Source of the DNA: Eremomyces bilateralis CBS 781.70
Taxonomy: Eukaryota
DNA: 64,000 bases
Strand: one strand, 5' to 3'
NCBI GenBank assembly: GCA_010015585.1
Contig: ML975192.1
Part shown: positions 5,803-39,401 of the stretch, in pieces
Position numbering within the stretch: position 1 is the first letter of the stretch
Layout: every line of letters begins with the position of its first letter
Position numbers and translations under genes: made by a program
Notes under the pieces: model-generated
What the model was told of the DNA's origin: nothing
The model's input: only the letters and a program-made list of their open reading frames with translations
Databases searched by the model: none

Positions 5803-6612
5803 CATGACACCGATTCGCGATATCTTCTTATCGTTATTACGCGTGAGCCATTATAGTCGATACGAACTCGTGGTGCTATTTTAGTTTCCGGGCTATCTCT
5901 ACTCCTTTCTATTCCTTACTAGTTAATAGCGCGTTATCGTTAGGGTTCGGGTCTGGTAGCTAGAGATAGTCTCCTAAGTTCGGGTGATACCCATAGCTTA
6001 AGAAAAACGGGCTTATTGCTGTCGATGAGGCCGTTCGTGCGAGCACGGAGGCTTAAAGAGTTAGGAGGTGCTCGTCCTAATTATCTTAGAAGAAATCGTA
6101 GAAGTGTCGGAGGTACTCTTCTAAGACCTAATTTATCCTTTCTATACTTCTATCGGTTTCTGGGTAAAAAGTAGTTAATAATCGTTACTTAATGACACGG
6201 TCTGGATGCGCAAGGTCTGCGATTACCAAGTTCCATTAATCTAAACTGAAGAGAGAGAGAGAGAGAAGAAATCTCCCGGCACCTTTGTGCGCGAGATAGC
6301 GACTCTCCTCTCCAATGCCCTACTGCTGTGTTACCATGTTTGTTTGCTTCTCTGATATAATCCACCAGCCACGTCTTCAGCCACAACCAAGGGAACAGGC
6401 CACAGGCCTGGGACCATAACACTTAATTCCTAATATCTTATAGATTTATTTCTAGACTCCTTTAACGAAGTTATCTCCTCTGTCTGATATAATGGCTATT
6501 GGTAGCAAGTGGTATAGAATGTAGTGCTTAATCATCATAGCTGCTACTGTCTCTCCTTCCATATCTTTACAGGGGATAAAGATCGCGCCTTTGCCTAACC
6601 TGTCAACAATCC
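5803..6612 (-). pseudogene. RIP-degraded Ty3/Gypsy integrase fragment, interrupted by a solo LTR
   Basis: Translates to IVDRLGK...IISDRG...TTFYPETDRSIERIN*VLEEYLRHF...ISPFFLSYGYHP with TAA/TAG stops at expected Q/W codons. Confidence 0.85.
6193..6421. mobile_element. Solo LTR family B (229 bp) with 5-bp TSD CTTAA
   Basis: TGACACGG...CCATAACA flanked by CTTAA at 6188-6192 and 6422-6426; the integrase frame continues on both sides. Confidence 0.9.
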
Positions 6613-6743
6613 TCCGTGGGGGAAGAAATTGATGGCCCATACAAAGCGTCTTGGCACTACATCACCAGTTTTCCAGATCTTTACAACTAACAGATTACAA
6701 ACTCCAACCTACTACAACGCCACCGTCTTCTCTTCATGGAACG

Positions 6744-6883
6744 TGTAGAAGTATTGATACGTGATTGATTAATCTATCTAGGAGTATGGGAGGCCTCGGA
6801 GGAATAGGAGGTGACCACATGGTACTAGCCGTATTGGGATGTCACCTGACTCCCAACCTCTAGAGGATGGTTGATATCTAACA
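6744..6883 (-). mobile_element. LTR family C (140 bp), 3' LTR preceded by a polypurine tract
   Basis: Minus strand reads AAGGAGGAG|TGTTAGA...TTCTACA; an inverted partial copy lies at 8085-8205. Confidence 0.7.
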
Positions 6884-6996
6884 CTCCTCCTTAAACATCA
6901 TCTTCAGGGTAAGGCCGTCGTTAAGGTGGCTCACGCGGTGCTTCAGGGGCAGTTTGCCGTTCCGGGATGTCCGTGGGTGGTGTTGAAGGTGCTGGG

Positions 6997-7790: not shown

Positions 7791-8084
7791 TTGAAGTGTT
7801 CGCGTAGGTACGAGGTCTATGGCTCTCCGTGTCGTCGACGAGGTTAAAGAAGACCACGGTATGGATAGCTTCGGCAGAGGTGATAGGCTGTAAGGTCACG
7901 AGATGGTTGTGGGCATAGAGTGAGATGGTCACGAGTAATAGACGAGTAGTGGACGAGTCAAGCGGTATAGATTGATAATATCTGTGCCTCAATACTTAGA
8001 CTGATCCTTAAAGAAGGAGAAGGAGAAGGGTTCAATGAAGGGTCCTCAAATAGTGGCTCCATTGTGTTACACGTGACTTAGCAG

Positions 8085-8205
8085 TAGAGGTTAGGAGTCA
8101 GGTGACATCCCAATACGGCTAGTATCATTTGTGGTTACCTCCTATTCCTCCGAGGCCTCCCATACTCCTAGATAGATCAATCAATCACGTATCAATAATT
8201 CTACA
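8085..8205 (+). mobile_element. LTR family C, inverted partial copy
   Basis: Reverse complement of ~6744-6865 with few mismatches; ends TTCTACA. Confidence 0.8.
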
Positions 8206-9180
8206 AGAACTATTTAATAACTAACAGCGAACCTTAAGGACGGAAGAGAGTGAGTTCCTTCTGCCTATTGATTCGTATATGCTTGCTGAACTGATGTAGA
8301 ACTCTTGGACAGCCGATCTCTGAATATGTTTTCTAAAGGATCTTCTTCTTCGACTGTAGCAGAAGATGGCGCATCTGCTCCATCTTCATTGTTACCGCCT
8401 CCAACATCGAAGCAAGGACTCGCGATCGGGGGGCGCGGTAGTTTGTGTAGCAGAATGGTCGATAGCTAGGATCTATAGCTCCGAATTCCAAATTTTTGAG
8501 ATAGAATTGGTCTATATTGCGCGTAGAATCATTCCATGAAGCTAATGATGTTGACCTAAATGCTCACCAATTTGCATGCCACGAACGTCAACGTCACCAA
8601 AAAATTTCAAATTTGTCTCAGGCCCTTCGTGTGGGTAACCCATTTTGGGTTAGCGCCTTGGCGTCCCACTAAGGGCCTGAGAGTCTGAGGTAACATAAAC
8701 ATTCCCCACCTAGCCTCCATAGGAATCCACATCTTCTCTACTATCAGTCTTTGTAACACATACGAAACCATAACAGAATCCCTCTAGTATTTCAAGCCTG
8801 CGGCTACAATGCATCCAGGGCAAGAATAATAATGGCATTGGAAACTAAGATCAAAACGCATAGATTTCATGGGAAAGGCTTCTGGAGACACGGAGTTGAT
8901 GAACTCCGATTGGAGCCGATGTTCCTGATTTAACTTTCCTGTGCGGGCCGAACCCATCCCGTTCCGACAGCAAATCGTGGGGCTTCACATGTCTTCGCAT
9001 GGCAAAATCATAAATCTGGGGAACATAAATGTGTAGCCGGTCGTCATAAAGCGTACTCACAAATTTGATCAATGGATTTCGAAGCAAGACCTTCTGCTGC
9101 GCTCCGTGTGATCCCCTCACAACCACCATAAAACCTACTATTTGGACCCAGCCTATCATCATCAAATATATTGAACCAAC

Positions 9181-9540
9181 ATGAGGATCCATGCCGCTGT
9201 GATCTTCGCCATTGCTGGTACTCCTCTCGCGCAATCACCCACTATTACCTCATCCGGAGTGCCTCTTCCCAACGCAAGCGAATTCGCCTCCCAACTCGAC
9301 GCCCTCAATGCCTATGTTAGCACCATGGACCCCGCGGAACAGTCCAGTGTCTTAGCGGTCATGGAGTCTGGGTACGACATCGGGACTGCTGTGGCCAACA
9401 GCTTTCTTTCATCCATACAAGCCAACTCGCCTAGTGCCACGATTCAAGGAACAACAAGCGGAGGAGCTGCGCCAACCTTAGGAGTACATACAATGGCAGG
9501 GCTTGCCGGTGTTGGAATGGCGGCTCTTGGGATGTTGTAA
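9181..9540 (+). CDS. Small secreted Ser/Thr/Ala-rich protein, probably GPI-anchored (119 aa)
   Basis: N-terminal signal MRIHAAVIFAIAGTPLAQ; C-terminal SGGAAPT...AGLAGVGMAALGML, a typical omega-site plus hydrophobic tail. Confidence 0.7.
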   Translation: MRIHAAVIFAIAGTPLAQSPTITSSGVPLPNASEFASQLDALNAYVSTMDPAEQSSVLAVMESGYDIGTAVANSFLSSIQANSPSATIQGTTSGGAAPTLGVHTMAGLAGVGMAALGML

Positions 9541-10034
9541 TAGGCAGAGGAGAGGACTAGAAGAGACTTGCGGGCTCAATTTCAGGCTTGGGATAATAGG
9601 ACTAGCAGGTTCATGCGGAGCATGATGAATGTACAGTTAGCATTGTCTTGATAATACGAAAAGCGGCTGGCTCACTTGACATGGACTTATTTCAGTTGGG
9701 ACTCAGGCATCAAGATCCTTTGATGTTTGGATGACCACTTTCAAGATGGTCAATCTCTTTTACCAACCTTTCCTTTATACGAACATTCTTCTATAAAGAC
9801 AAAGGTAAGGAATTTGCTGCAAACGGATAGGCAGGAAGGCTATATAATGAGCGGTCCTATACTGTTATTTAGTAAATCACAACTCAACTATTCTATAGAT
9901 ATTGGACTGTCATTCTAAGAACAACAGCTACAGCTGGTATTGTTCTTCGGCTTATCTTTCTTCCTTTGAACTATATGGAGTTCCTTACCCACTGTGCCTG
10001 AGGTTGAGCCTCTGCAGACATTCCAATCTCAACA

Positions 10035-10293
10035 GGAGGGTAATCGCGTCGTGAAGGCATTCCGTTAAGACGAGTACGTAGAATACTTTCAGGAACGTTA
10101 TAGGTCGTTGCAGCAGTTAGGACACGTTTTATTTAGCCTTATTTAATAGCTAGTTTCGCTAATTTAACCCTGGCTTTGTTTAAAGGTAATTAAGGTTGTT
10201 ATTATTAAGACATTGCGAAAATAGGGGGGTGATCGCTATGGTGAGTGAAAATTCGCAGCTCGGTGGTTTCCGCAGCTCGGTGGTGGATTACGT
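10035..10293 (-). mobile_element. Truncated pogo/Fot1-like (Tc1/mariner) transposon 5' end, RIP-damaged
   Basis: TA|ACGTAATCCACC terminus with doubled CCACCGAGCTGCG; damaged HTH-psq start (ARVKLAKLAIK*G*IKRVLTAATTYNVPESILRTRLNG). Confidence 0.8.
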
Positions 10294-10311
10294 TAGATAG
10301 GACAAAGATAG

Positions 10312-10756
10312 TGTCGCACGTGATGTGCTAAAATGGTTGGGAGTGAGGTGCTGTTGTTCCAGCAGCGAAGTTGTTGTATTGTTGTGTGTTCTAGGTATCT
10401 GAAAGTTGCGTTCAAGTTGCGTGTTCTTATGTCAATGCCTGGTCCCCTGGCCCTCCAGATATATGAGATTCGTGGCAAGTTTATTAATGCAGTTTGTAGC
10501 CTCGAGCTGTCGCAATATGCCCCTGTTGGTTTCTACTGCCACCTAACATTCCTTTCACTGCCCCCTACCCCTGGGCTAGGCCTAATCAGGACTCTTCAGT
10601 GTTCTCCTATGTATTTAAGTTATCTTCATCTGGCTACTAGCTAGATCTCTTTTCCTAGACAATGGGAATCGTTAATACCAATTTGCGTTATGACTCTACA
10701 GTAACTGAGCCTAAGCAGCAATCGTGCTTAATCATCATCCCCGCATAAATGCGACA
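10312..10756 (-). mobile_element. LTR family D (445 bp)
   Basis: TGTCGCA...TGCGACA inverted termini; last 92 bp identical to 14403-14494; PPT-like TCTAAGGGAG just upstream on the minus strand; no TSD. Confidence 0.7.
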
Positions 10757-10785
10757 CGAGCTCCCTTAGATGAAACCTTGGTCTG

Positions 10786-10985
10786 CGACAAGTACCATCC
10801 TCTGTCGAGGATTGTTAGATGCCCTACCAGGCAACCTGATTAGGTAATGCCCTACCAGGCAAGGCTGTCTGCCTTCTCAGTTTTCCAAAAGGCTGTCTGC
10901 CATCCTAGCTACGCAACGTTTGGGGGGTTGCACCCCCTCTCGCTCCGCTCGACCCCCCGCCATCCGGATCCTATGCTAGGAGGGA
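10786..10985. repeat. Viral common region, downstream block, copy 1
   Basis: GCCCTACCAGGC repeats, GGGGGGTTGCACCCCC hairpin, CCATCCGGATCCTATGCTAGGG; homologous to 12352-12520 and 13953-14190. Confidence 0.9.
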
Positions 10986-11116
10986 TATTTGGTTCACTTA
11001 GTGAAACCAGTCTAAAGCGACAAGGCACTAAGGTAACGAGGTGTATAATATAATCGTTAACTACTAAGACAATAGTAAGCCACTGGCGTAATAGAATCAA
11101 CCAATGACCGTATTAA

Positions 11117-11821
11117 TCAGACACTAACCGTGTTTAAAACCGAATCCATCCGCTCCCGCAACCGTCCACCCACCGTTACCGTGTCACTAACATCCGTACC
11201 GTCCGCAACATCATCATCGTCTAACCGTAGATCCCAACTAACCAAGACCTCCATCTCCGACTTCCCCGTCACCGCGGGTCCAAACAATGACAGCGGGCTT
11301 AACTGTACGACGTCATCCCACCACGCGGGAACCAGCCCGCCCTCCGTCAATCTGTGAAAGCGGAACCCCTCCGCCATACACCAAGTCATGTACTGACTGT
11401 ATAACGGCACCTCATCGGTCGACCTTACCACGTCCGGCTCTCCTAAGTAGGCTGCAACTCTCTGCAGCATCGACTGAGATACTAACGGAAACAGTCCAGC
11501 CGTACCTCGCCACGGATTCTCACTCCACGGCTTCTCGGGAGTTAAACACGACGCGCACCAGGAATCCGGTGCCACGATAACCTTCCCAGTCTTCGTCTTC
11601 GACGACCTCGTCTCCTCGACCGAATAACCCGGACCTAGCACCACTACGTGGCGATCGCAACCACGTCGCGAACAGCATAGCACCGTCGCCGTTCCCAAGG
11701 GCGTCTCCATCTTTTGTACCTCTACGAGCCCTCGCCCCCTATAGAGCGGTACCGTATCCTCCACCACTACCGTGGCCACTGGCTCCATTACTACGTCGCC
11801 AACTATCTCGTTACCGGTCAT
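11117..11821 (-). CDS. Segment A protein, 234 aa, unknown function, putative Zn-binding (CCSRRGC...WCASC)
   Basis: Intact ORF between the shared promoter and downstream blocks; candidate leader intron 11859-11963. Confidence 0.7.
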   Translation of the reverse strand: MTGNEIVGDVVMEPVATVVVEDTVPLYRGRGLVEVQKMETPLGTATVLCCSRRGCDRHVVVLGPGYSVEETRSSKTKTGKVIVAPDSWCASCLTPEKPWSENPWRGTAGLFPLVSQSMLQRVAAYLGEPDVVRSTDEVPLYSQYMTWCMAEGFRFHRLTEGGLVPAWWDDVVQLSPLSLFGPAVTGKSEMEVLVSWDLRLDDDDVADGTDVSDTVTVGGRLRERMDSVLNTVSV

Positions 11822-12089
11822 CTCGAGACCTCGACGATAACAACCAAGAAGGTGATCCCTAACGGACAGCTTATCAGTATCCCTTCATTACCAGGACACT
11901 CCATTAATCGGCTACCGCCTTATACTGACTCCAAACGTTGACTCAACGAGAAAAGAACCTTACCTGTTTACCTGACCTACCGATCAAAGCTGGTCTACCC
12001 ACCTAAGTGACTAGTCAGTAGTTTCTATCAAACGACGCTCTACGAAGCGGAACCAAAACGAGTCAACGACGACGTCACAGTCAAACAAA

Positions 12090-12300
12090 GCGGGGATCCC
12101 CTCCATTAAGTACCTAAAGTGTTTACCAACACGTGATGTATGTATCACTCCATGCGGCCCTTTGAAAGGGCCTCTTGCACTCCCTTGGCAGTCCGTGCTT
12201 AGCCAGTGAACTTCATTGCATTACGTTCCTATGAGTGGCTTTCGCTACGCTCCAGCCCTAACGGTGAGACCTGAAGGTCTCCTACAAGAATCTACGGCCC
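12090..12300 (-). promoter_or_regulatory. Shared promoter/common-region block of segment A
   Basis: GGGGATCCCC, CACGTG, CATGCGGCCCTTTGAAAGGGCC; homologous to 13695-13900, 14495-14685 (inverted) and 15300-15400 (inverted, diverged). Confidence 0.75.
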
Positions 12301-12301
12301 A

Positions 12302-12351
12302 TGCGGCCCACCGACTATAAGCAAAGATAGACATAGTCGAGGTGGGCCGTA
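12302..12351. other. Stem-loop, putative rolling-circle origin, copy 1
   Basis: Arms TGCGGCCCACCGACTAT / ATAGTCGAGGTGGGCCGTA around loop AAGCAAAGATAGAC. Confidence 0.65.
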
Positions 12352-12520
12352 AATCCTGCGCCACTGGCCGTGGCGTCAAGTACCCTTTCCAAGGGTTTTT
12401 AGAAGCCCTAGCTCTACCAGGCAAGGCTCTCTGCCATCCTAGCTTCGCTAACGTTTGGGGGGTTGCACCCCCTCTCCGCTTCGCTCCGACCCCCCGCCAT
12501 CCGGATCCTATGCTAGGGAA
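12352..12520. repeat. Viral common region, downstream block, copy 2
   Basis: Homologous to 10786-10985 and 13953-14190. Confidence 0.9.
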
Positions 12521-12617
12521 GGACACTCTAGTCACTAGTAGATACAGTCATAAGCAATAAGTAAAGCAAGTACTAAGAGAAAAACCGTATACTAATTTCA
12601 ACTATGAAAATACGCAG

Positions 12618-13625
12618 TCACGAGTAATAAACATCAAGCATCAGGTTGGACAACCAACCATACTCCAACGGACCCATTCCGCGATTTCCATCCTTGGGCA
12701 GGATCGCACCTAACGCCCGGACGCCAAACATCAACTCTAGATTCGGCTCAAACACAGGAAGGTTCCCCTCCGACGTTGCAAACTCCATCTTCTTATCCAG
12801 CGCCCAATATACCTGGATATCCCGCGTATCATACTGAACATAGCCTCCCGGCGTATTCGGCGCCCAATTCTGCGTCCGCATTATACCGCTGACATGGTAC
12901 TCCTGCGCGAACGTCCTCCCACTCTTCCGCTTCTCATCCTCACCGACCTTCCACCTTGCCTCGCCTACCGGCTGCCCAGGCCCGTCCGCCAACCGGCAAT
13001 TAAATAGGCTATGATCCGTCGAATCAAACATTATCGACCCTTTCGGACCAGGGATAACCGAAAACGGTCCGTCTTTCGCTACCCGTAGAAAATTCGTCTC
13101 CTCTACCCTTAGTAGACGAACCCGCTTCGCTGTTTGATCTTCGAACCCAACTCTAAAAGTTGTCGGAATATCTCCACCCCCTCCGTCCGTCTCGACCAAC
13201 TTTTCCTGTACCCGCGCCGGATAACATACGCCCATTACCTGGACTGAGGTAGCAAACGTTAACTTCAGTCGGACGCCGACTCCCTTTATATGGACCTTAT
13301 CGGTACGCCTCCAACAACTGTCGGGACCACTATTCATCGACCGCTGAACCGGAATCACCTGCGTAATCGGAACCCGGAAGTACGACTCCGCCGCTTGGGG
13401 ACCTTCGCTACACAAGATAACCTTATCCGGATGACCCCTCAGAATCACCTTCTGAGGCGGACCTTTCGCAAGACGAGCAACCTCATCCTTTACCGCACGT
13501 TGGACTACGCGGGAAACTACCGCCTTTCCTATAGTCTTCTTTCCGCTTCGCTTCTTTAGCGGCATCCTCTTCTTATACGGCTTACGACCATAGCCCTTTC
13601 GGCTAGACGAGTATCGAGCGACCAT
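12618..13625 (-). CDS. Segment B: capsid-like protein of geminivirus/genomovirus (single jelly-roll) type, 335 aa
   Basis: Arg/Lys-rich N-arm (MVARYSSSRKGYGRKPYKKRMPLKKRSGKK), then IPVQ...WRRTDKVHIKGVGVRLKL, VYWALDKKMEF and a terminal strand LMLDVYYS, in the order expected for CRESS capsids. Confidence 0.75.
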   Translation of the reverse strand: MVARYSSSRKGYGRKPYKKRMPLKKRSGKKTIGKAVVSRVVQRAVKDEVARLAKGPPQKVILRGHPDKVILCSEGPQAAESYFRVPITQVIPVQRSMNSGPDSCWRRTDKVHIKGVGVRLKLTFATSVQVMGVCYPARVQEKLVETDGGGGDIPTTFRVGFEDQTAKRVRLLRVEETNFLRVAKDGPFSVIPGPKGSIMFDSTDHSLFNCRLADGPGQPVGEARWKVGEDEKRKSGRTFAQEYHVSGIMRTQNWAPNTPGGYVQYDTRDIQVYWALDKKMEFATSEGNLPVFEPNLELMFGVRALGAILPKDGNRGMGPLEYGWLSNLMLDVYYS

Positions 13626-13694
13626 AATGTTTACCAACCCAGTTTAGCAACTGAACGAAAACTAATCGTAGACGACGTTACAATAGCAGCGGAG

Positions 13695-13900
13695 GTGGGG
13701 ATCCCCTCCATTAAGTACCTACAGTGTTTACCAACACGTGATCCCGCTAGCATTCCATGCGGCCCTTTCAAAGGGCCTGATGCATTATCTTGGCAGCTAA
13801 TGCTTATTAATGAACTCCGTTGCACTTCGTTCCTATTGGTTGCATTCCTACGTCATGCCTAAAAGTGACTTCTGCGAAGTCCTAACAAAATCTACGGCCC
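13695..13900 (-). promoter_or_regulatory. Shared promoter/common-region block of segment B
   Basis: GGGGATCCCCTCCATTAAGTACCTA and GTGTTTACCAACACGTGAT shared with 12090-12140; CCAAT box on the minus strand. Confidence 0.75.
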
Positions 13901-13901
13901 A

Positions 13902-13952
13902 TGCGGCCCACCGACTATAAGCAAAGATAGACATAGTCGGTCGTGGGCCGTA
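13902..13952. other. Stem-loop, putative rolling-circle origin, copy 2
   Basis: Same left arm and identical 14-nt loop as 12302, different bulge in the right arm; starts exactly 1600 nt downstream. Confidence 0.65.
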
Positions 13953-14350
13953 ATCCACCAGCCACTGGCCGTGGCTGAATGTACCCTTTGCCAAGGGTTT
14001 TTAGATGCCCTACCAGGCACCCTGATTAGGTAACGCCCTACCAGGCAAGGTATCTCTGCCTCCTTAGTCCCTGAGTAAAACCTATTGGTTAAGGCTCTCT
14101 GCCTTCCTAGCTTCGCAATGTTTGGGGGGTTGTACCCCCTCTCCACTTCGCTCCGACCCCCCGCTATCCGGAAATCGTACTGGGAGGGAAGACTTGATCA
14201 GTTAGTAAAGACGTGATCTTCAGTGAAACCAGTCCAAAGTGAGACGGTTTGATCGCAGAAGTTACGAGAACCACTTTCATTTATTGCAAAGCTAAAGAAG
14301 AAGAGCTATCTACGACGCGTGCGCGATGTCCAAGACTTCGACAGTTGACT
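13953..14350 (-). repeat. Common region copy 3 plus the truncated 3' end of a further segment
   Basis: Downstream block 13953-14190, then AGTGAAACCAGTC (also at ~10999) and AATAAA on the minus strand near 14280; cut by an LTR fragment. Confidence 0.7.
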
Positions 14351-14402
14351 TAGTCACGTGACTATCATTCAGGAGACAGGCCACAGGCCTGGAACCATAA
14401 CA
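14350..14402. mobile_element. LTR end related to family B
   Basis: ACAGGCCACAGGCCTGGAACCATAACA matches the end of 6193-6421. Confidence 0.65.
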
Positions 14403-14494
14403 GGAATCGTTAATACCAATTTGCGTTATGACTCTACAGTAACTGAGCCTAAGCAGCAATCGTGCTTAATCATCATCCCCGCATAAATGCGACA
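14403..14494 (-). mobile_element. LTR family D terminal fragment (92 bp)
   Basis: Identical to 10665-10756. Confidence 0.85.
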
Positions 14495-14685
14495 CTTCGC
14501 AGAAGTCACTCGTAGACCGCAGCGTAGCGGAGGTAACCAATAGGAACGCAATGCAATGAAGTTCACTTGTTAAGCACGGACTGCCAAGTGAGTGCAAGAG
14601 ACCCTTTGAAAGGGCCGCATGGAGTGATGCACGGGTCACGTGGACCTCGTAGAGGTTTCCTATAAGGAAGGGGGTCCCCCACTAG
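14495..14685 (+). promoter_or_regulatory. Shared promoter block of segment C (inverted relative to A and B)
   Basis: Reverse complement of the A/B block; CCAATAGGAAC, CCCTTTGAAAGGGCCGCATGG, CACGTG, TATAAG, GGGGGTCCCCC. Confidence 0.8.
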
Positions 14686-14852
14686 ATTCGTAGAAGGCGG
14701 ATTTAATAGAAGAGCCATTCCACTACACTGCGCTACGCTTCGCTGCGCTCTCGTTTCGTTCCAGGCGCGCTATAGGTATCTAGGCCGCTAATCGATAGAT
14801 TCTAGACTGATCTAGACGACTCGGTAGAGGATTACTTAGTAAGTACTAATGA

Positions 14853-15239
14853 TTAATAGAAGAGAAAGAGGCGAAAGTCCTCGGTAGAGTATCTTGGTCC
14901 TTGATGACGATAAGGAGACTGATTACAAGTCCGGTAGGGCGGGTCCTCTTGGTAGAAGAAGTTGGCGGTTGCCTCGACGGCTTAGAGATGCCGTTACGGA
15001 GCGAAGCGGAGAGGGAGTCATTGGCGATAGCGCACCGGATCAGTGACCGGTAGCGTGGGTATCATATATGCGAGTGGAATGGAGCACGGAATTGTTGGTG
15101 TAGTCGAGAGAGTCGGTGGACGGAGTACCCGCATTCGCACTGGGACACGGGAAACGTGTGTCGAGAGCCGCGGTGTGAGGCTCATACGCAGCTGACGGAA
15201 TTGGAGGTAGCGCTGGGGACGGCAGGACAATGGTCGTGA
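14853..15239 (+). pseudogene. Segment C ORF, Cys/His-rich, one internal TAG
   Basis: 128-codon frame with a single stop at 15051 (CAG>TAG type): ...HRISDR*RGYHICEWNGARNCWCS...NVCREPRCEAH; candidate intron 14776-14859. Confidence 0.55.
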
Positions 15240-15299
15240 CGAGATGGGTCTCGGTCGTCGATGGGAGTGGGAGACGCGGAGGACGAGAGGGCCGGTAGG

Positions 15300-15685
15300 G
15301 ACGCCAAGGAAATGCACTCTGCCAAGAGGGCCGCATGATCGAAGTACACGGGTGAAGTGGGTCGATAGATAAATTGTTATATAAGAAGGGGATTCCTACT
15401 GGATCTCCTGTAGCGATGTCTTCGACGACTCGTCTTCGTTTCGCCTCGTTTCGTTGATAAACGGGTCGGATAGGATGGTTTACCGCGTAACTGCCTTGTT
15501 AGGATGGTTAACTAGTGGATCATAGATGGATTCGTATGGCTTACCTCGAGAGTCTTTGCTCGCGGAGTCGGATGGTCTCGTTAGTAGAGTCTGGTGATGT
15601 TGTTTCATCGCGGATCGTGTCGCGTCGTCTGGTTAAGCGTTGGTGCCTTGTAGCCTGACTGGCTTGTCAGTGTCTGTGTTATTGT
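15300..15685 (+). other. Segment D: diverged promoter block and truncated 5' part
   Basis: GCCAAGG..TGCA, GAGGGCCGCATG, CACGGGT, TATATAAG, GGGGATTCC in the same order as segment C; cut by the Mutator-like element. Confidence 0.55.
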
Positions 15686-15955
15686 GGGCTAGCAGTTCAC
15701 CACAGGTTCGGAAAAACCTCGTCGCAGGTACGATCTCGGCGCAGGTAGAATTAGCCCGTGGCGGTGCAATTCTCTACCTGCGGTCAACTTTTAGCTTGTA
15801 CTTTACATAAGCGCAAAAAAACATGCCACCGATCGAAAGTTACTGGTATTTCGGCAGTAGATGTACTGCATATGCTACACATAGCGCATAAAGAATTTCT
15901 GCCCACACCTCCCACCTATCTGTTACTTCTCTTTTCCCTGGAATTGACTTTAGAG

Positions 15956-18900
15956 ATGCCAGTATCTGATTCTATCACCGACAGGTATAAATATGTCTAA
16001 TGTCTTCCGCTAGGCCCCCAACTCCGGTCAATGCTCGTACAGCGCAATGGTTATCGATGCTAGTAAGGAATATGCAGACCACATGCGGGGCATATATTGA
16101 CCCAAATAGCACACCACACCCACGGCGGCCCGTCAGGGAATACTTGGTCTCTCATAGGACGATGAGGCACATGCTGAAGACATGCACGCGAATGAGATCC
16201 GTCCAATCATGTCGGAGGACGTCGCTGATATCGTCCGGATGGGATATACCAAGGCAAGTTTATGGACTGACGGTATCGAACATATACTAAGCATATACAG
16301 GAATTCCTGGAGGAGTATGGGCTGGTGATTGCGTCCAATGGTCCCTCTAAAGTAGTCGTTCGGGAGGTTTATGATCATATTACGCTACCAGGGTACCCAT
16401 TCACTAGTGTTAAGGGGATCCTTCACTGTATTCGCTCCGCACCGATCATTCCATATCGAAAAGCGTCAATTTCGGATGCCCGGGCCGCAATTAGCAAAGT
16501 GATGTCTGGGGTGTGTTGCGCATATACTTTGGATATACACTGCTTATGTACAGCAGATTCAGTTCAGTATCCGCGCGATTGGAAACCCTGAAAAGCACCA
16601 CTTTCGCTTCCTGGGCATGTCTGGGAAGAAGGGTGACGAAACGACACATGCGTGGCATATGCAATACCGTTGTTCTGGGATTCGCCACTGCGAACTGGCC
16701 CATCAGAGTATCCTGACCTTATGCAGAGCATATGATCGTGTCCGTGTTGAAACTATTACTAAGATTCGACAGTTCAGTAGTCGGGTGTCTACTAATATTA
16801 CCCAGGAGCTTAAACTAGAGACAGAAAGGTACCTATATGATGCATATGCCAAATATATACTGAACATATTCGTAGCTTCTACAATGCGTTCATGATGAAG
16901 TGGAATCAAGATAAATGCAAACCGCCTGACGTTGCCGATATCATATGCTCTGCAGATCCAGATATATATGAGCTCAATGGAGTTTGTATATGCCATGCAT
17001 ATGGCCAACACATGCTGATCATATACAGATCACTTTCATTGGCTGCCCTCTGGCGAGTGCGCAGGAAACATGGCACTTTACTATTCCTGTCACTGCTTCG
17101 TTCGCACGCATTGATCAGGACTATCTACGGGCACTATTCCAGTACGGAGTTAAACCACAGAGGTCTCATTGCGTTTTTATCGATCAGACTACGGGCCGGA
17201 GGCGACGCTGTGGTAGGTAAATAGTCAAATATGTTAGGCATATGCTAAGTATTAGTAGGATTTGATCACCCGGAGGGCTATGGCAAGGTAGTGCAGAGGG
17301 AATGCGAGGTCCGATTTGATATATATGTCCCCGTCAACATGGCACGATATAAGTTTTTTGTACTCTGTGCATGCGGTCCGCATTCGCACCATCCTCCCTT
17401 TCCGAATCGCGTGTCTGAAGATGTTAGGCAACTCATCAGAAATGCTCTCAAAGAGGAGGATGTGTTGACTCTTACTCCGCGTATGCAGCGCACTTGCAGA
17501 ACATATACCTAAGCTAACCAGTCATAGTCCGATTCATCCAGTCTCCCACATTCAAATCCCTGATGCAAGCATATGGCCAGGATATGTCAGAGGCTATTGC
17601 ACGTGCTGTTGCGGTACGAGACCGCATTTCGATGTTGATTCGGAAACAACGGCTATTAGAGCATCCGGACGGAACATCGCTAGCTGGTCAGTATGTGTTA
17701 TATATATGCACGGCATAGACTAATCATAAGCAGGCGTTGCGCGGGAGGCTGATATTGACCGCACCCGCCCAAACGAACAGCAGTGGATCAGGAAAATAGT
17801 ATTTATCGACGAAGCCGGGGAAGCCTCAACATGTGGTTCGCACTACATTGTCATATGCATGACATATGCAGGAGCTAAACAATTTCACAAATCAAATATG
17901 TTTGAAATGGATACAGCATTCAAGGGCGTCCATGGTGGCCATAACGTGTTTTCCATCGCAGGGTGGGATTCTGAGGTTCGACGTAAGTTGACCATATACA
18001 CGGCATATTTCGTAACTGACAATATCATGCTTGTTCGTCTATTGTTGGGTTTTTACCACCATAACAACGACCCCGCAATGGCGGACTCTTTTTTATCACC
18101 TGTTCGATACGTTCGATACTGTTGGGAGCGAAGTAATCCATTGGTGGCATACCCATCAAGGCTCTGGAATCCGGACATTTACCGTAGATATGGACAAGGC
18201 TTAGGCGTTCGGTGAGTTAAGGTATATGTACACCATATGAAGAGCATGGGCTAAGTTCATGCTTAGGTCTCGGCCAGTACTTGCATGAGTAAGACCCATC
18301 GTGGAGTGTTCTCGAGCATCTCTCGTATATCCTTATCTTCTGCCGAACGCATGTTCTGCGGAACCTCCGTAAATATAATCATGGCAAACTACGAGCACGC
18401 GATATCGAGTTCCTATGGTGCGCGAAATCCGAAGCGGAATTGGTATAAAAGGCTGCAGACGTATGCCAAGCATATCCTCAGCTTAAACCGTTCATTAACC
18501 ACAAGCTCGAGGACTGGTGTATCATTGGCCTTGCGCCGGAGCATACCCGTATGTATCCGGAGTGGTTTACCTATGCGAGGAAGCATTCAGGTATCGCCGA
18601 AAGCTCTCATTTTAAGGATAACAACTTCACTGGCCGTAATCTTAGTCTGCTTGGGGCAGTAATGAGGTACGTACTATATATATGCTTTGCATATGGAATG
18701 CTTATGCCTCTAGGCTTCGCGATCATGCCTTCAACATCTTGACCAGTCGAGAGATTGAGCTATCGCGAGGTATACGCGCTACATGGCGGCAATGTGGACG
18801 CATCGAAAGTTACAGGACCAAGTTCTCTTACCAAGGTCAGTTATCCTATAGCCTAAGGCTTTTATATATGCTTAGTAGATCTATGGGTAGTTCGGAGACA

Positions 18901-21579: not shown

Positions 21580-22189
21580 CTATGCAGCATATGCTCAATA
21601 CATGCTCATATCATGTTTAGGGCGGGGAAGATGGCGCATATGCTTGTCACACGTGCCCAAGATGTTGAGTATGGGTTGGGTACATACCTTAAAGTGGTGA
21701 GATGTAAAAAAAGAAGAAGGATCTGGAAGGAAGAGCGACCATATGCACCAAATTCACATTGCGGTGTCCACTGTGGACGCGCAGCATATGTTGATATCAA
21801 AATTTTGAAAGATTTTATCAGGTGATTTGAGGCTTACGTAATTCACAGCAATCGAATTCAAAATTTACCAGTGAAATTACAGCGTATATAAATTACAAGC
21901 TAAAAGTTGAACGCAGGTAGAGAATTGCACCGCCACGGGCTATTTCTACCTGTGCTGAGATCGTACCTGTGACGAGGTTTTTCCGAACCTGCGCTGAACT
22001 GTAAGCCCAAATAGATAGCCGATCGCAGTGAGAGATATCTCTTCCTTTTCTCTTTAGCAATTCAACAGCGTTACCAGCTTACCAAATCCTTCGTGGTTTG
22101 GGCCCTCGACATCCTATACCGTTATTATCCGGTTACAATAGACTTTACATGGTTCGTATTCATTTATATAGATATACGACCTAAGACTA

Positions 22190-35704: not shown

Positions 35705-36597
35705 GGTGACCTGGGTTGGGAGTACGTTGCACAGGCCTATCGATTCGAGGTCGAAGTGCTAAATGGCACGGAGCAATGCCAAAGCGGTTGGAGTAAAGGA
35801 CTACCTGCAGACGGATCGCATCATCAAATCAGCCATTTCTTCTCGTCTTCCCAGAGTTCAACGACCTACAATTGCGATTCCGCCCAAACCAGGACTCGGG
35901 CAATGATTAATATGCGAAGAGAGCTCTTCATTGCACAAACCACAGGTCAGTCCAATGCTGAGCTGGAGCGTTGCATTAGGACGAGTTCAGGAATGAGGGG
36001 AATCCTTCGTGGTATGGAACGGTGGTGTCCAGATGTGGTGAGCACTGCTAGAGTTATGTGGATGGTCGAGACGCTGGTTGAATCGTGTCCTCCACGTTCT
36101 TGAAACGGTATGAGCAACCCAACCAATCAAAACGCGTTTCATTCGAGCCTCCACAATACTTCCGCTTTAAGCTGGTGGACATTCACCCATAGTTACCGGT
36201 ACTCTTATGATACAACTGATACAGGTCACAATGGGACCATCATATTCGTACCGGTATCATATATGAGCAAATGACCCGGAATATCACTGGGGTATACACT
36301 TGAGCATTTAAATTCCGTATATTTTCTCGGGCAAGGCAGTTGTGACTACCGACCGAGGTTCAATGCCTTTGCTTCAGCTAAATGTACTCCGTAACGAGCG
36401 CATGTCACTATCAAAGCCCGGGTACTGGTACTGAAACGAATGTCAATTGTATCATCACGATATCAATTGTTGGCACTTGAAGAACCTCCACCTAGCACTG
36501 ACAACGATACCAGTGCCACGCCGGTCATGAGTCGTTCCATTCATACATAACAGCATAGCAGTGCATAATCTATTCGTCAGACGGCATGAAACTAATC

Positions 36598-39401
36598 CTA
36601 CTTGGGTTGGCCGAATTGCCGCTCATTAACCGTTTCGAATCCTCGAAATACATCTCGAGAATGAAACTGAGCAAGGGACTCCTTTTCCATCTCCCCGGAC
36701 ATTGGGGGCTCGGGTCGGCTTTGAGATCCGGAATATCCCGGTGGTACGAATTGAGGGGCACCGGATCCCATGGATGGGTTGAACTGCTCCGTGCAGCCCC
36801 TACCAGAAGGTCCCTTCTGGTAGACATGCTGGTTGGGAATGCCAGTCTGCCGGTGAACCGACTCGGAATAAGTTCGTGGAGGATTCATGGAAGGTGCTTC
36901 GGCCATTTCAACGTCCGGAAAATCTCCATCTTCATCCGAATCACTCGCAAGATCGGTGACGGTTACTTCGGGGGCGGGAACTCCGGCGCGAGATATGGCG
37001 GTTTGAGCGAGCGATGGTTTTTCCGCAAGATTCGAGAGCACAGTACGAGATGCGTCGAGCATCCGGACTGCCCCTTCGAGGAACCCCTCACCATCTTCTG
37101 TCAAACCGTTGGGCAAACCACCGTAAATAGCACCTTCACTGCTACCGGTTGTATGGGATGCCCGCATTCGCACCTTTCCACGGGACACGCCTAATGTCCA
37201 GCGATACTCCGCGAGACGATGCTTGTAAAACTCGGCCTCTTCGCGAGCTGGAGCGGTGGCCCAGAGAAGCGAACCAAAAGTGCCAATCAAAGTGAAATTG
37301 ATTTTGGATGGAAAATACCAGAACGATTGTAGATGTTCGGGTTTGAGCCGGTTTACAAAGTCCATTGCAGAGATCAGTCTTGTTTTCGCTGCGGACCGGC
37401 AAATGTAAATCAAGTAAGGATCGATATGTGGGGATGGTCCGGGATTCATTGCCCCGGAGGATGGGGTGGTGGAGGATGGAACTGATGTCGGAGGCGTGGG
37501 CGAGGCGTTGAGGCTAGGGGACATGGAACGTGAAATCGAACTCGTTGCAGTTGGGTTGGACGTCGTGCTTATGGATGATGCGGAGGCAATCGTCGCCGGA
37601 AGGGGTAGTGTCGACAGTGACTGGACGATACGTCGATGCAGAGTGATTTCTGTGGCGAAATAAGCCAGGTGCAGAAAGCCTAGCAGAATCAGTGAGTGGC
37701 TCTGGGAATCAAGGGAGGTTGACAAACCTGTTCCGCTCAATACGCCCGGTTGATAGTTGTCCATCCGTGCTGCCGGGGGGAGTTTGGCAAACCAGTCCTT
37801 CAAGCGAATCTGGACGGGTTTCGCTCGTTCCAAGATCAATTGGGTACTTTGCAAACCAGCATCCTTGAAATCGCGTATCGCCGTCTGCGTATAGAAGGTG
37901 TCCATAATCTCACCCATGATTGCGGTCAAACCGATCATCTCGGCAAAAAGCACCTGTCCCTTTGCAGCCTCGTCGAGCTCCTCTTCTGTGATCCCCAGTT
38001 CTCCAACATCAACTGCAGTGCTGTTGCTCTCATCGAAGTCCTGGTTCGCGATAGGTTTGACGGCCCAATTGGCAGGAAATATATGACTCGGGCGGCCGTG
38101 AATCAGGCTACTCCATTTATCTTGCATATACAAGGCCCATGCAATCCGCTTTCGTAAACCCCTTTCCCAAGCCGGGACACTCCAACTGCTACAGTCGAGA
38201 TGTAAGCCCAAATCTTGGCCGATCGCCACCAGTTGGGTGGTGAGAGACCAGGAATCTGCCTCGGGCCTCTGAAGCAGGAGCAATCCGGCTTGGACGGTAT
38301 TTAGTTTCGGACGTGTCATTGCTGCCGCAAGGCTGCGCATCGCAATGGATTCCAGGGCAATTGTATTGGGACGAGGAAGTGATGCGAGTGTGGGATCATG
38401 AGACCACCAATTTAACGCCAAAAGATACATGCCCGCAAGAAGTGTGGGAGAGGAGGCCGGATCACCATTTAGAAGTCGCTCTAAAAAGATCCGCTTCTGA
38501 ATGATTGGGAAGCTCGGATGGACGATCTCGAAATAAAGAGAGATCAATTTGCTGCCATGTGGATGCACCAGTTGTTCGACGGCGGAAAGCGCCTCGGAAT
38601 CCTCGCCATATTCTTGTGAGCACTCGTCAGGTAACATAATGAAACATTCATGATCGTTCACTTTTCGTAATGTTCCCAAGTCGAATCGTGATTCATTATG
38701 GGTGTCGAATATACTCAGCGAAATGAGGGACGGGTCGAAGGGGGTGGTCTGGCCAATGTACCGACTGAACTTTCGTCGTTGCAAACCAAGGGTTTCACCA
38801 AGGAGTTTGTTGGCACCGTTTTCAAGATCGCGGTTGAGGTTTGGGGAGATGGCCACGTTTGACCCAGATTTAGAGAGATGATTGGAAAGGTATGAATGTG
38901 AGGATAGTACCTTTGGTGTGGGCGATGTATTCCTATTTTGCCGTTTACCTTCATCAGTGGATCTGATATCGAAGTTAGCATGGTCTGTAGAAGCGCCAGA
39001 CTAGATGGGTGCATCCCGTCTCACCTTTTCTTGGTCTCTTCCCCGTTACTCGCATTCCCATTGGGTAACTTCCGCTTTCGAGGTAGAGGACTCTGTACGA
39101 AAGTACACTCCTGGTGGTGGAACTCACACAGTACACAGAGGATTTTCCCTTCGTGGATAACGCACCGACTCTTCCGACGACGACAGGCGTCGCAAGGTCT
39201 TTCACGGCGACTACGAATGTTCGTCGCTCCGTTGATGGTCGCGGGTTTCAGCTGAACAGCATTCTCTTTCTCCCTTGACATATGCGACGGCCGGTTGGAT
39301 TGTGTCTGGGATGAGACCGGCGATGGTCGAATATGAGGGGATGAAATCGGTAGTACTGGACTGGGGCCAGAAATTGGGCGTTGCATGGCCACGACAGCCA
39401 T
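36598..39401 (-). CDS. tamA: Zn(II)2Cys6 transcription factor, TamA/Dal81-like
   Basis: RPCDACRRRKSRC...CVLCEFHHQECTF binuclear cluster plus a fungal TF middle-homology region; intron-containing. The orthology call is from recalled motifs only. Confidence 0.7.

Follow-up and report, generated by a model that had tools for sequence, protein, structure and literature searches.

The system closest to the locus reported here is Botrytis cinerea single-stranded DNA (ssDNA) virus 1 (BcssDV1). In the parts of its description available to us, this virus has four circles of 1669-1707 nt, which encode a negative-sense Rep whose gene has a putative intron, a positive-sense capsid protein of 327 aa and two proteins of unknown function, together with a long common region of ~260 nt and a 38-nt short common region with a stem-loop, for which the nonanucleotide TACTCTT^CA or TACTCTT^AG was proposed (PMC10731770). 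Other motifs were proposed for the same Botrytis virus in the available part of a second paper (PMC8309985), and these papers together give four different proposed nonanucleotides. Here we describe a locus in 64,000 nt of Eremomyces bilateralis CBS 781.70 (contig ML975192.1, assembly GCA_010015585.1; this whole stretch is hereafter the window), in which two hairpins bracket a capsid gene. We hold, with a probability of about 0.8, that these hairpins are the origin stem-loops of an endogenised multipartite ssDNA mycovirus, whose capsid segment is complete and chromosomal and stands in a rearranged head-to-tail array.

As far as the available text on BcssDV1 goes, the resemblance extends from the fungal host to the layout of the units. 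Both have units of ~1.6-1.7 kb with one main open reading frame (ORF) each, a virion-sense capsid gene with products of similar length (327-342 aa, against 335 aa in the window) and detectable homology, and a long common region with a short, perfectly conserved core that holds a stem-loop with a non-canonical loop. The window has a 1600-nt unit, a common region of ~480 nt at 79 % and a 51-nt core, and the units of its relatives measure 1681-1716 nt. In contrast to BcssDV1, the loop of the window lacks TACTCTTCA; its DNA is chromosomal and at single-copy depth, with unlike units arrayed together; our scans found no Rep segment; and the four segments of BcssDV1 compare with at least seven unit types in the metagenome relatives of the window.

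Fusarium graminearum gemytripvirus 1, a tripartite genomovirus, has segments of ~1.3 kb. Like the locus described here, it combines a multipartite ssDNA genome in a fungus with common regions and a stem-loop origin, as stated in the available part of PMC10731770. With the Nanoviridae, circoviruses and geminiviruses the locus shares a plan in which each small circle carries a single gene and the origin stem-loop lies in a common region. Circovirus hexamers and geminivirus iterons are short direct repeats that adjoin or overlap one stem arm, as the repeats do here. However, these are viruses of plants and animals, their loop motif NANTATTAC is absent here, and there is no similarity in common-region sequence. 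Geminivirus genomes are reportedly freed from partial tandem repeats by replicational release, a result ascribed to Stenger and colleagues in 1991. There, as here, a unit lies between two origins in direct orientation; release of the geminivirus genomes was shown with a cognate Rep, whereas here neither a Rep nor a circle has come to light. Geminivirus-related DNA is also endogenous in Nicotiana. The table of endogenous ssDNA-virus sequences in Liu et al. 2011 totals 302 Rep-like and 3 capsid-like sequences, and the available part of that paper includes fungal Rep-like insertions, the fungal entries apparently standing in the Rep column (PMC3198968). Both that survey and this locus concern DNA of circular ssDNA viruses fixed in a nuclear genome, but here it is a capsid segment with accessory units that has retained intact origins, and no Rep was found.

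Paired hairpins and the array of units

In the window there are exactly two copies of the loop AAGCAAAGATAGAC, at 12319-12332 and 13919-13932, a spacing of 1600 nt. When up to two mismatches are allowed there are still 2 matches, against 0.39 expected, a number reached in 4 of 100 shuffles. Around both loops 51 nt are identical (12289-12339 and 13889-13939), and this core is enclosed in a longer repeat, 12050-12410 against 13653-14012, with 78.8 % identity over 368 columns (BLAST E 1.7e-76). Chance is excluded as the origin of the hairpin repeat. Each hairpin has a 14-bp stem and a 14-nt loop, and the two differ only by a bulge in the right arm, which is the 2-nt AG at 12340-12341 in hairpin 1 and the 3-nt TCG at 13941-13943 in hairpin 2; left arm and loop are identical. 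Folding of four 81-nt stretches as ssDNA (both strands of both copies) gave -15.7 to -18.5 kcal/mol (z -3.77 to -4.55), and for each of the four stretches 0 of 200 shuffles folded equally well. Neither loop holds a NANTATTAC-type nonanucleotide of circular Rep-encoding ssDNA (CRESS) viruses on either strand, and an Rfam search of 9500-15800 at E <= 0.1 returned no match. The earlier note on this DNA, made from the letters alone, had reported two hairpins exactly 1600 nt apart, with the same left arm, an identical 14-nt loop, a differing right-arm bulge and no such nonanucleotide, and it was accurate on each of these points.

Tandem copies of TGGGCCG adjoin both stems in the manner of iterons at a CRESS-DNA origin and, judged from sequence, are putative Rep-binding sites. 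All five copies of the 11-mer GGGCCGCATGG in the window lie inside the viral array. Two of the copies lie at the hairpins and three in upstream common regions (12150, 13755 and, on the plus strand, 14612), and in each upstream common region the extra copy lies ~145 nt from the tandem TGGGCCG. The features of the array are as follows.

10665..10757: last 93 nt of a host high-copy repeat, identical (100 %) to 14403-14495; left break of the array
10758..10985, minus strand: downstream common region of unit A, truncated, without a hairpin on this side
11117..11821, minus strand: ORF of unit A, 234 aa, intact
12050..12290, minus strand: upstream common region of unit A, between hairpin and ORF in virion sense, with GGGCCGCATGG at 12150
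12295..12310, minus strand: tandem TGGGCCG, two copies with starts 9 nt apart, one of them within stem 1; iteron-like
12305-12348: origin-like stem-loop 1, left arm 12305-12318, loop 12319-12332, right arm 12333-12339 and 12342-12348
12360..12540, minus strand: downstream common region of the capsid unit
12618..13628, minus strand: capsid gene, 335 aa plus stop, intact, with basic N-terminus and predicted jelly-roll
13653..13890, minus strand: upstream common region of the capsid unit, with GGGCCGCATGG at 13755
13895-13910: tandem TGGGCCG at hairpin 2
13905-13949: origin-like stem-loop 2, left arm 13905-13918, loop 13919-13932, right arm 13933-13940 and 13944-13949
13960..14240, minus strand: downstream common region, followed by the start (~50 nt) of the body of a third unit, which resembles unit A and is truncated by a host repeat
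14240..14495 (left limit approximate): host high-copy repeats within the array, one element to 14402, then the 93-nt end of a second
14494..14642, plus strand: inverted upstream common region (86 %) of a fourth, defective unit, without hairpin, with GGGCCGCATGG at 14612
14997..15018, plus strand: inverted 22-nt remnant of a downstream common region, 95 % complementary to 12467-12488; probable right limit of the virus-derived DNA

The array extends from ~10758 to 15018 and is built of related units that share a common region of ~480 nt. Complete copies of this region lie at 12050-12540 and 13653-14191; the others are partial, being the downstream half only at 10799-10985, the inverted upstream half at 14494-14642 and the inverted remnant at 14997-15018. 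In order, unit A with its 234-aa ORF is followed by the capsid unit and this by a stub resembling unit A; the inverted defective unit lies to the right. The partial copy at 10799-10985 is 77 % identical to 13985-14189, and 10889-10980 is 94 % identical to 12423-12517; the start of the body of the third unit resembles that of unit A (11000-11025 against 14222-14247, 85 %). The two complete common regions differ by 32 transitions and 43 transversions, which is unlike repeat-induced point mutation and therefore marks them as belonging to two different segments; units of the metagenome relatives are similarly divergent (72-84 % identity). The 1600 nt from hairpin to hairpin make up a complete capsid segment that corresponds to DNA-B of BcssDV1.

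The hairpin in metagenome relatives

Relatives of the array were studied on three metagenome contigs, L001 (1737 nt), L002 (8583 nt) and L003 (6671 nt), of which L002 and L003 are chains of units that each carry a different main ORF on the capsid strand. Every unit boundary on the three contigs has a hairpin followed by tandem TGGGCC(G), with a motif spacing of 1695 nt in L001, of 1716, 1702, 1710 and 1681 nt in L002, and of 1710, 1694 and 1693 nt in L003. When the hairpins of four relatives were folded, they adopted the same fold as those of the window (z -2.48 to -3.81). The window and all three contigs thus have one hairpin per unit, folded as a stem-loop and placed in a common region at the unit boundary, as in a CRESS-DNA origin. 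Counted by hand, the relatives comprise at least seven distinct unit types.

Between the window and the stems of L001 and L002, 3 of the 14 stem pairs are changed on both sides (A-T/G-C, C-G/T-A and G-C/C-G) and 11 are unchanged; pairs were counted by hand, since MAFFT misaligns left arms where loop lengths differ, and the three compensatory changes separate only two clades and may reflect few events. In a MAFFT alignment of eight hairpins, loop columns T27 A28 T29, T32 T33 and C35 T36 T37 are invariant, as are both TGGGCC motifs. These eight fixed positions make up a loop core, TATnnTTnCTT on the capsid-sense strand, which adjoins the right arm, whereas the 5' part of the loop is variable even among units of one contig. 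The presence of the hairpin, the compensatory changes and the conserved loop core at every unit boundary of the relatives shows selection on the structure in the virus. Given that the same hairpin, with compensatory stems and a conserved loop core, recurs at every unit boundary of three unrelated metagenome contigs, and that both the capsid ORF and the 234-aa ORF are intact, we consider it improbable that the hairpins of the window are dead relics, conserved only through joint duplication and with no present or past role as origins, even if the lack of a Rep in our scans of the window and related loci, the DNA depth without amplification and the invasion of the array by host repeats would agree with such relics.

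The earlier note had called the hairpins origin-like. This term is supported, as they lie in the common region of different units of ~1.6-1.7 kb, recur in every unit of the relatives and have compensatory stem changes; the covariation that the note had named as a check across hairpin copies is present in the three stem pairs that distinguish the window from L001 and L002. Its expectation that the loop would be conserved in other copies holds for the core TATnnTTnCTT, kept in eight hairpins, but not for the 5' part of the loop. The new nick-site type stays a possibility drawn from the architecture, and a non-canonical motif, TACTCTT^CA, had already been proposed for BcssDV1 in the available part of PMC10731770. 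The conserved part of the loop is its 3' half, whereas the nonanucleotide proposal printed for BcssDV1 falls in the 5' half. In this 5' part the loop of L002 starts with TACTCTTCT, which by hand agrees with the nonanucleotide proposed for BcssDV1 at 8 of 9 positions.

A search of IMG/VR with a degenerate pattern of loop plus stem found 0 matches. Matches to TGGGCCGNNTGGGCCGTA in IMG/VR were found at 18 loci, none of them similar to any common region by blastn, and were set aside as chance matches. Several observations on the contigs themselves are recorded here. The 163-aa protein encoded by L002 7582-8073, which equals L003 3915-4406, matches a WW domain at E 7.9e-5 (23.1 bits, short of the Pfam cut-off of 26.9), and its N-terminal stretch is chromodomain-like by eye; it is a candidate host-interaction protein. 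The 215- and 197-aa proteins encoded by L003 400-1047 and 5483-6076 have short motifs in common by eye (…GFPY…, …TFGE…) and, judged from these, may derive from paralogous segments. Both ends of L002 are exact copies of internal common-region stretches, 1-127 of 1717-1843 (127 nt) and 8369-8583 of 6676-6890 (215 nt).

The capsid gene and its homologs

The ORF between the complete common regions (13628..12618, minus strand) encodes 335 aa with an N-terminus rich in arginine and lysine. A Pfam scan of this ORF gave no match. An AlphaFold2 model from nine family members is a beta-sandwich (pLDDT 68.4, pTM 0.68), and Foldseek matched it in the PDB to satellite tobacco necrosis virus (E 2e-5) and to the geminivirus capsids of ageratum yellow vein virus (AYVV; E 2.4e-4) and maize streak virus (MSV; E 1.5e-3). 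Among the matches listed from BFVD, 50 of 50 are viral (E 6e-10 to 1.2e-7), and those listed with names are capsids, CRESS, genomo- or circo-like virus proteins, or uncharacterised viral proteins; the nearest clusters in the ESM Atlas (score 0.95) are Cressdnaviricota. By its modelled fold, the 335-aa ORF is a jelly-roll capsid gene.

A word-based search found eight relatives of the capsid with 38-47 % identity, all on contigs of 1210-1872 nt. The profile of nine members, run against 1.84 billion representatives, matched 148 at E <= 1e-3, 103 at E <= 1e-10 and 33 at E <= 1e-30; source contigs were looked up for 30 of the 148. The longest contig was no longer than 2 kb for 21 of these 30, measured 2.7-5.1 kb for four and exceeded 80 kb for five. 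The five on large contigs (P0076, P0111, which represents a 33-member cluster, P0137, P0026 and P0035) are distant relatives annotated as 'hypothetical protein', and their sources include Lentithecium fluviatile, Fusarium sp. LHS14.1, Aspergillus fumigatus (the 33-member cluster) and Joint Genome Institute (JGI) contigs of 83 and 232 kb. In IMG/VR the capsid profile gave 23 pattern matches, of which 0 were confirmed.

One representative, P0125, falls in the same 90 % cluster as P0175, whose source name is 'coat protein [Botrytis cinerea ssDNA virus 1]'. Alignment of the capsid family with P0175 by hhalign gave a probability of 97.9 % (E 6e-13, 265 columns, 22 % identity), and BLASTP of the window capsid against P0175 gave 27 % identity over 170 aa (E 2e-11); by both comparisons the window capsid is homologous to the BcssDV1 coat protein. 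The capsid unit that the earlier note had placed between the hairpins is therefore confirmed as an intact 335-aa gene, predicted to encode a jelly-roll capsid, with a homolog in the coat protein of a multipartite ssDNA mycovirus.

This homology also bears on whether the units are viral at all. A transposon of non-viral origin that moves by rolling circle or ends in hairpins (Helitron or IS200/IS605 type) and has a capsid-like passenger gene would account for hairpins at unit boundaries, for tandem chromosomal arrays and for the lack of a Rep within the units. However, the predicted product of the main gene is a jelly-roll capsid, and its homolog is the coat protein of a virus whose virions have been purified, according to the available part of PMC10731770, and the window holds a single array. 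Moreover, scans of the window from 8000 to 18000 and of the three metagenome contigs found no match at E <= 1 to transposase, RepHel or TnpA families; these covered 11 ORFs, 10 ORFs and 83 stop-to-stop frames of at least 55 aa, the latter being 67 of the 68 frames of the window between 8000 and 18000 and, from the loci, the longer 16 of 87 frames. We therefore regard such a transposon as highly improbable.

Chromosomal state and significance

The locus is present in two DNA runs of one sample, X1 and X2, and in a further run, X3, which is RNA by guess only and contains spliced contigs; contigs (k=31) were compared over 9000-16500. In X1 the depth is 166-177 over the units and 156-193 in the flanks, and in X2 it is 215-234 over the units, with a few bins at 258-322, against 228-257 in the flanks. 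The host repeats at 10255-10757 and ~14240-14495 stand 25- to 150-fold above single-copy depth: bins 10255-10756 reach 6565-6901 in X1 and ~36000-38000 in X2 (single-copy ~160-190 and 215-257, respectively), and bin 14271-14521 reaches 4409 in X1 and 24043 in X2, the rise beginning in bin 14020-14270. Contigs of X1 and X2 (14465-15781 and 14465-15680) start in the inverted viral fragment and continue, with no difference along the way, into the expressed flank. ORFs on either side of the array encode Fungal_trans, BRR2/Sec63, kelch, MU117 and other eukaryotic domains, and on this gene content the window is fungal nuclear DNA. As in an endogenous viral element, host genes flank the array on both sides and its depth equals that of single-copy host DNA. 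The single-copy depth and the truncated, repeat-interrupted structure argue for an endogenous, rearranged array of different segments and against an episome.

An episomal virus of the sequenced culture might nevertheless have been misjoined into a fungal contig by the assembler, since high-copy repeats, which k=31 contigs do not bridge, border the units on the left and interrupt them on the right, and related capsid genes lie mostly on contigs of 1.1-1.9 kb (21 of the 30 looked up). However, every unit is at single-copy host depth in two DNA runs of one sample, which a free multi-copy virus would match by coincidence only, the units at the locus are truncated, inverted and interrupted by repeats, and the X1 and X2 contigs connect the inverted viral fragment with the expressed flank without any difference. 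For these reasons we think a misjoined episome distinctly improbable. DNA depth over the capsid unit in X1 and X2 gave no sign of an amplified episome in the sequenced culture; the junction of a circle would fall inside the 51-nt core, and k=31 contigs neither show nor exclude such a junction.

The surroundings of the array have further repeats. The high-copy repeats at 10255-10757 and ~14240-14495 have many variant joints, for example of 10502 to 10757-10771; many contigs diverge at 14402-14404, and parts of the repeats, including the piece 14240-14402, are also found in run X4 of another organism. In the gene-poor stretch around the array there are two pairs of inverted repeats, 6744-6862 with 8085-8205 (94 %) and 15680-15812 with 21882-22013 (90 %), which may be transposon ends. 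A 27-nt match (96 %) links 14376-14402, to the left of the second 93-nt copy, with 6395-6421, 8 kb upstream.

The 234-aa ORF of unit A has no Pfam match, its only database match is its own annotation as a hypothetical protein of Eremomyces bilateralis CBS 781.70, and neither the 216- nor the 236-aa ORF of L002 resembles it. A GxxxxGKS at residue 180 was rejected as a helicase motif, being too close to the C-terminus, and is taken as chance. A spliced Rep gene on the plus strand of unit A, comparable to BcssDV1 DNA-A, was likewise rejected, as all three frames are rich in stops with or without a 48-nt intron. This intron, at 11447-11494, is skipped in an X3 contig over 11204-12296 and has a GT start, an AG end and a CTAAC branch site on the plus strand, which points to a spliced plus-strand transcript that is antisense to the 234-aa ORF and reaches up to the hairpin; the spliced 11204-12296 transcript has no long ORF on its plus strand. 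At 15491-15544, contigs of the RNA run skip 50-54 nt with CT..AC ends, a minus-strand intron, so that a spliced minus-strand transcript (14720-15962) appears to overlap the right end of the inverted viral fragment. On the capsid gene an X3 contig covers 12488-13683 at depth 7 and ends at 13683, whereas the DNA contig continues to 13918 (one study); this end is a weak hint of a transcript end.

Several points weigh against an endogenised multipartite mycovirus with its own origins. Most directly, Rep, HUH or helicase families gave no match at E <= 1 in the same scans of the window (8000-18000) and of L001-L003. Genomoviridae are delimited by Rep phylogeny. As no Rep was found in the window or the loci, any assignment to this family would be provisional. 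In addition, the unit of the window is ~70-110 nt shorter than those of the relatives, the homology of the capsid to the BcssDV1 coat protein is distant (22-27 % identity), and the left junction between host and virus, where a high-copy repeat lies, is not bridged by contigs. Finally, the nick site of the lineage is disputed in print, as far as the available parts of PMC10731770 and PMC8309985 go, and the loop of the window has no more than the core in common with TACTCTT^CA of BcssDV1, agreeing at only 4 of 9 positions in the best register, counted by hand.

Based on geminiviruses, nanoviruses and circoviruses, we propose the following model for the mycovirus and its integration. Outside the chromosome, a Rep encoded on a different segment of the virus would bind the tandem TGGGCCG and nick the loop on the capsid-sense strand, and each circle would then replicate by rolling circle. 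Segments may have recombined or concatenated into an array that was subsequently integrated, and host repeats later truncated and interrupted it. Since the capsid unit keeps an intact origin on each side, a cognate Rep could free a 1600-nt circle from the integrated unit by replicational release; recombination across the identical 51-nt core could be an alternative route to the same circle. Of the releasable circle proposed in the earlier note, the architecture stands, with a whole segment between two intact origins, and release is possible in principle on that ground; the window and related loci, however, yielded no Rep, the depth is single-copy, and there is no indication of release in the sequenced strain.

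A bolder reading, which we think unlikely, is that chromosomal head-to-tail arrays of different origin-bracketed segments are a normal inherited state of this lineage, a provirus-like master copy for release by Rep. Neighbouring units do differ in all four contexts, namely the window (unit A, capsid, unit-A-like stub), L002 with five different units, L003 with four and L001, whose two terminal common regions match over ~30 nt before they diverge. No exact internal repeat of L002 or L003 exceeds 112 nt if the overlaps at the contig ends (127 and 215 nt) are set aside. We infer from the 127-nt end overlap that the largest word length of the assembler was 127; if so, the internal repeats are shorter than this, the units were joined by reads, and the chains would be physical rather than artefacts of the assembly graph. 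If this bolder reading were true, Rep would release individual circles from an inherited chromosomal array.

In the papers searched, including the available parts of PMC3198968 and PMC10731770, we found no description of an endogenous whole capsid segment between two intact origins beside an intact unit. What is new is this endogenous state of an origin-bracketed capsid segment beside another intact unit, the comparative definition of the origin, and evidence for unrecognised relatives of the capsid in the assemblies of several fungi. Multipartite ssDNA mycoviruses are a recent addition to virology, and their origin of replication is unsettled. For this lineage the origin can now be defined by a stem in which compensatory changes maintain pairing, by the conserved core of the loop and by a tandem heptamer that overlaps one arm, a definition that makes the nick site directly testable. 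Furthermore, since large contigs of several fungi carry relatives of the capsid under the label of hypothetical protein, this lineage may widely have become endogenous, or have contaminated assemblies, without being recognised.

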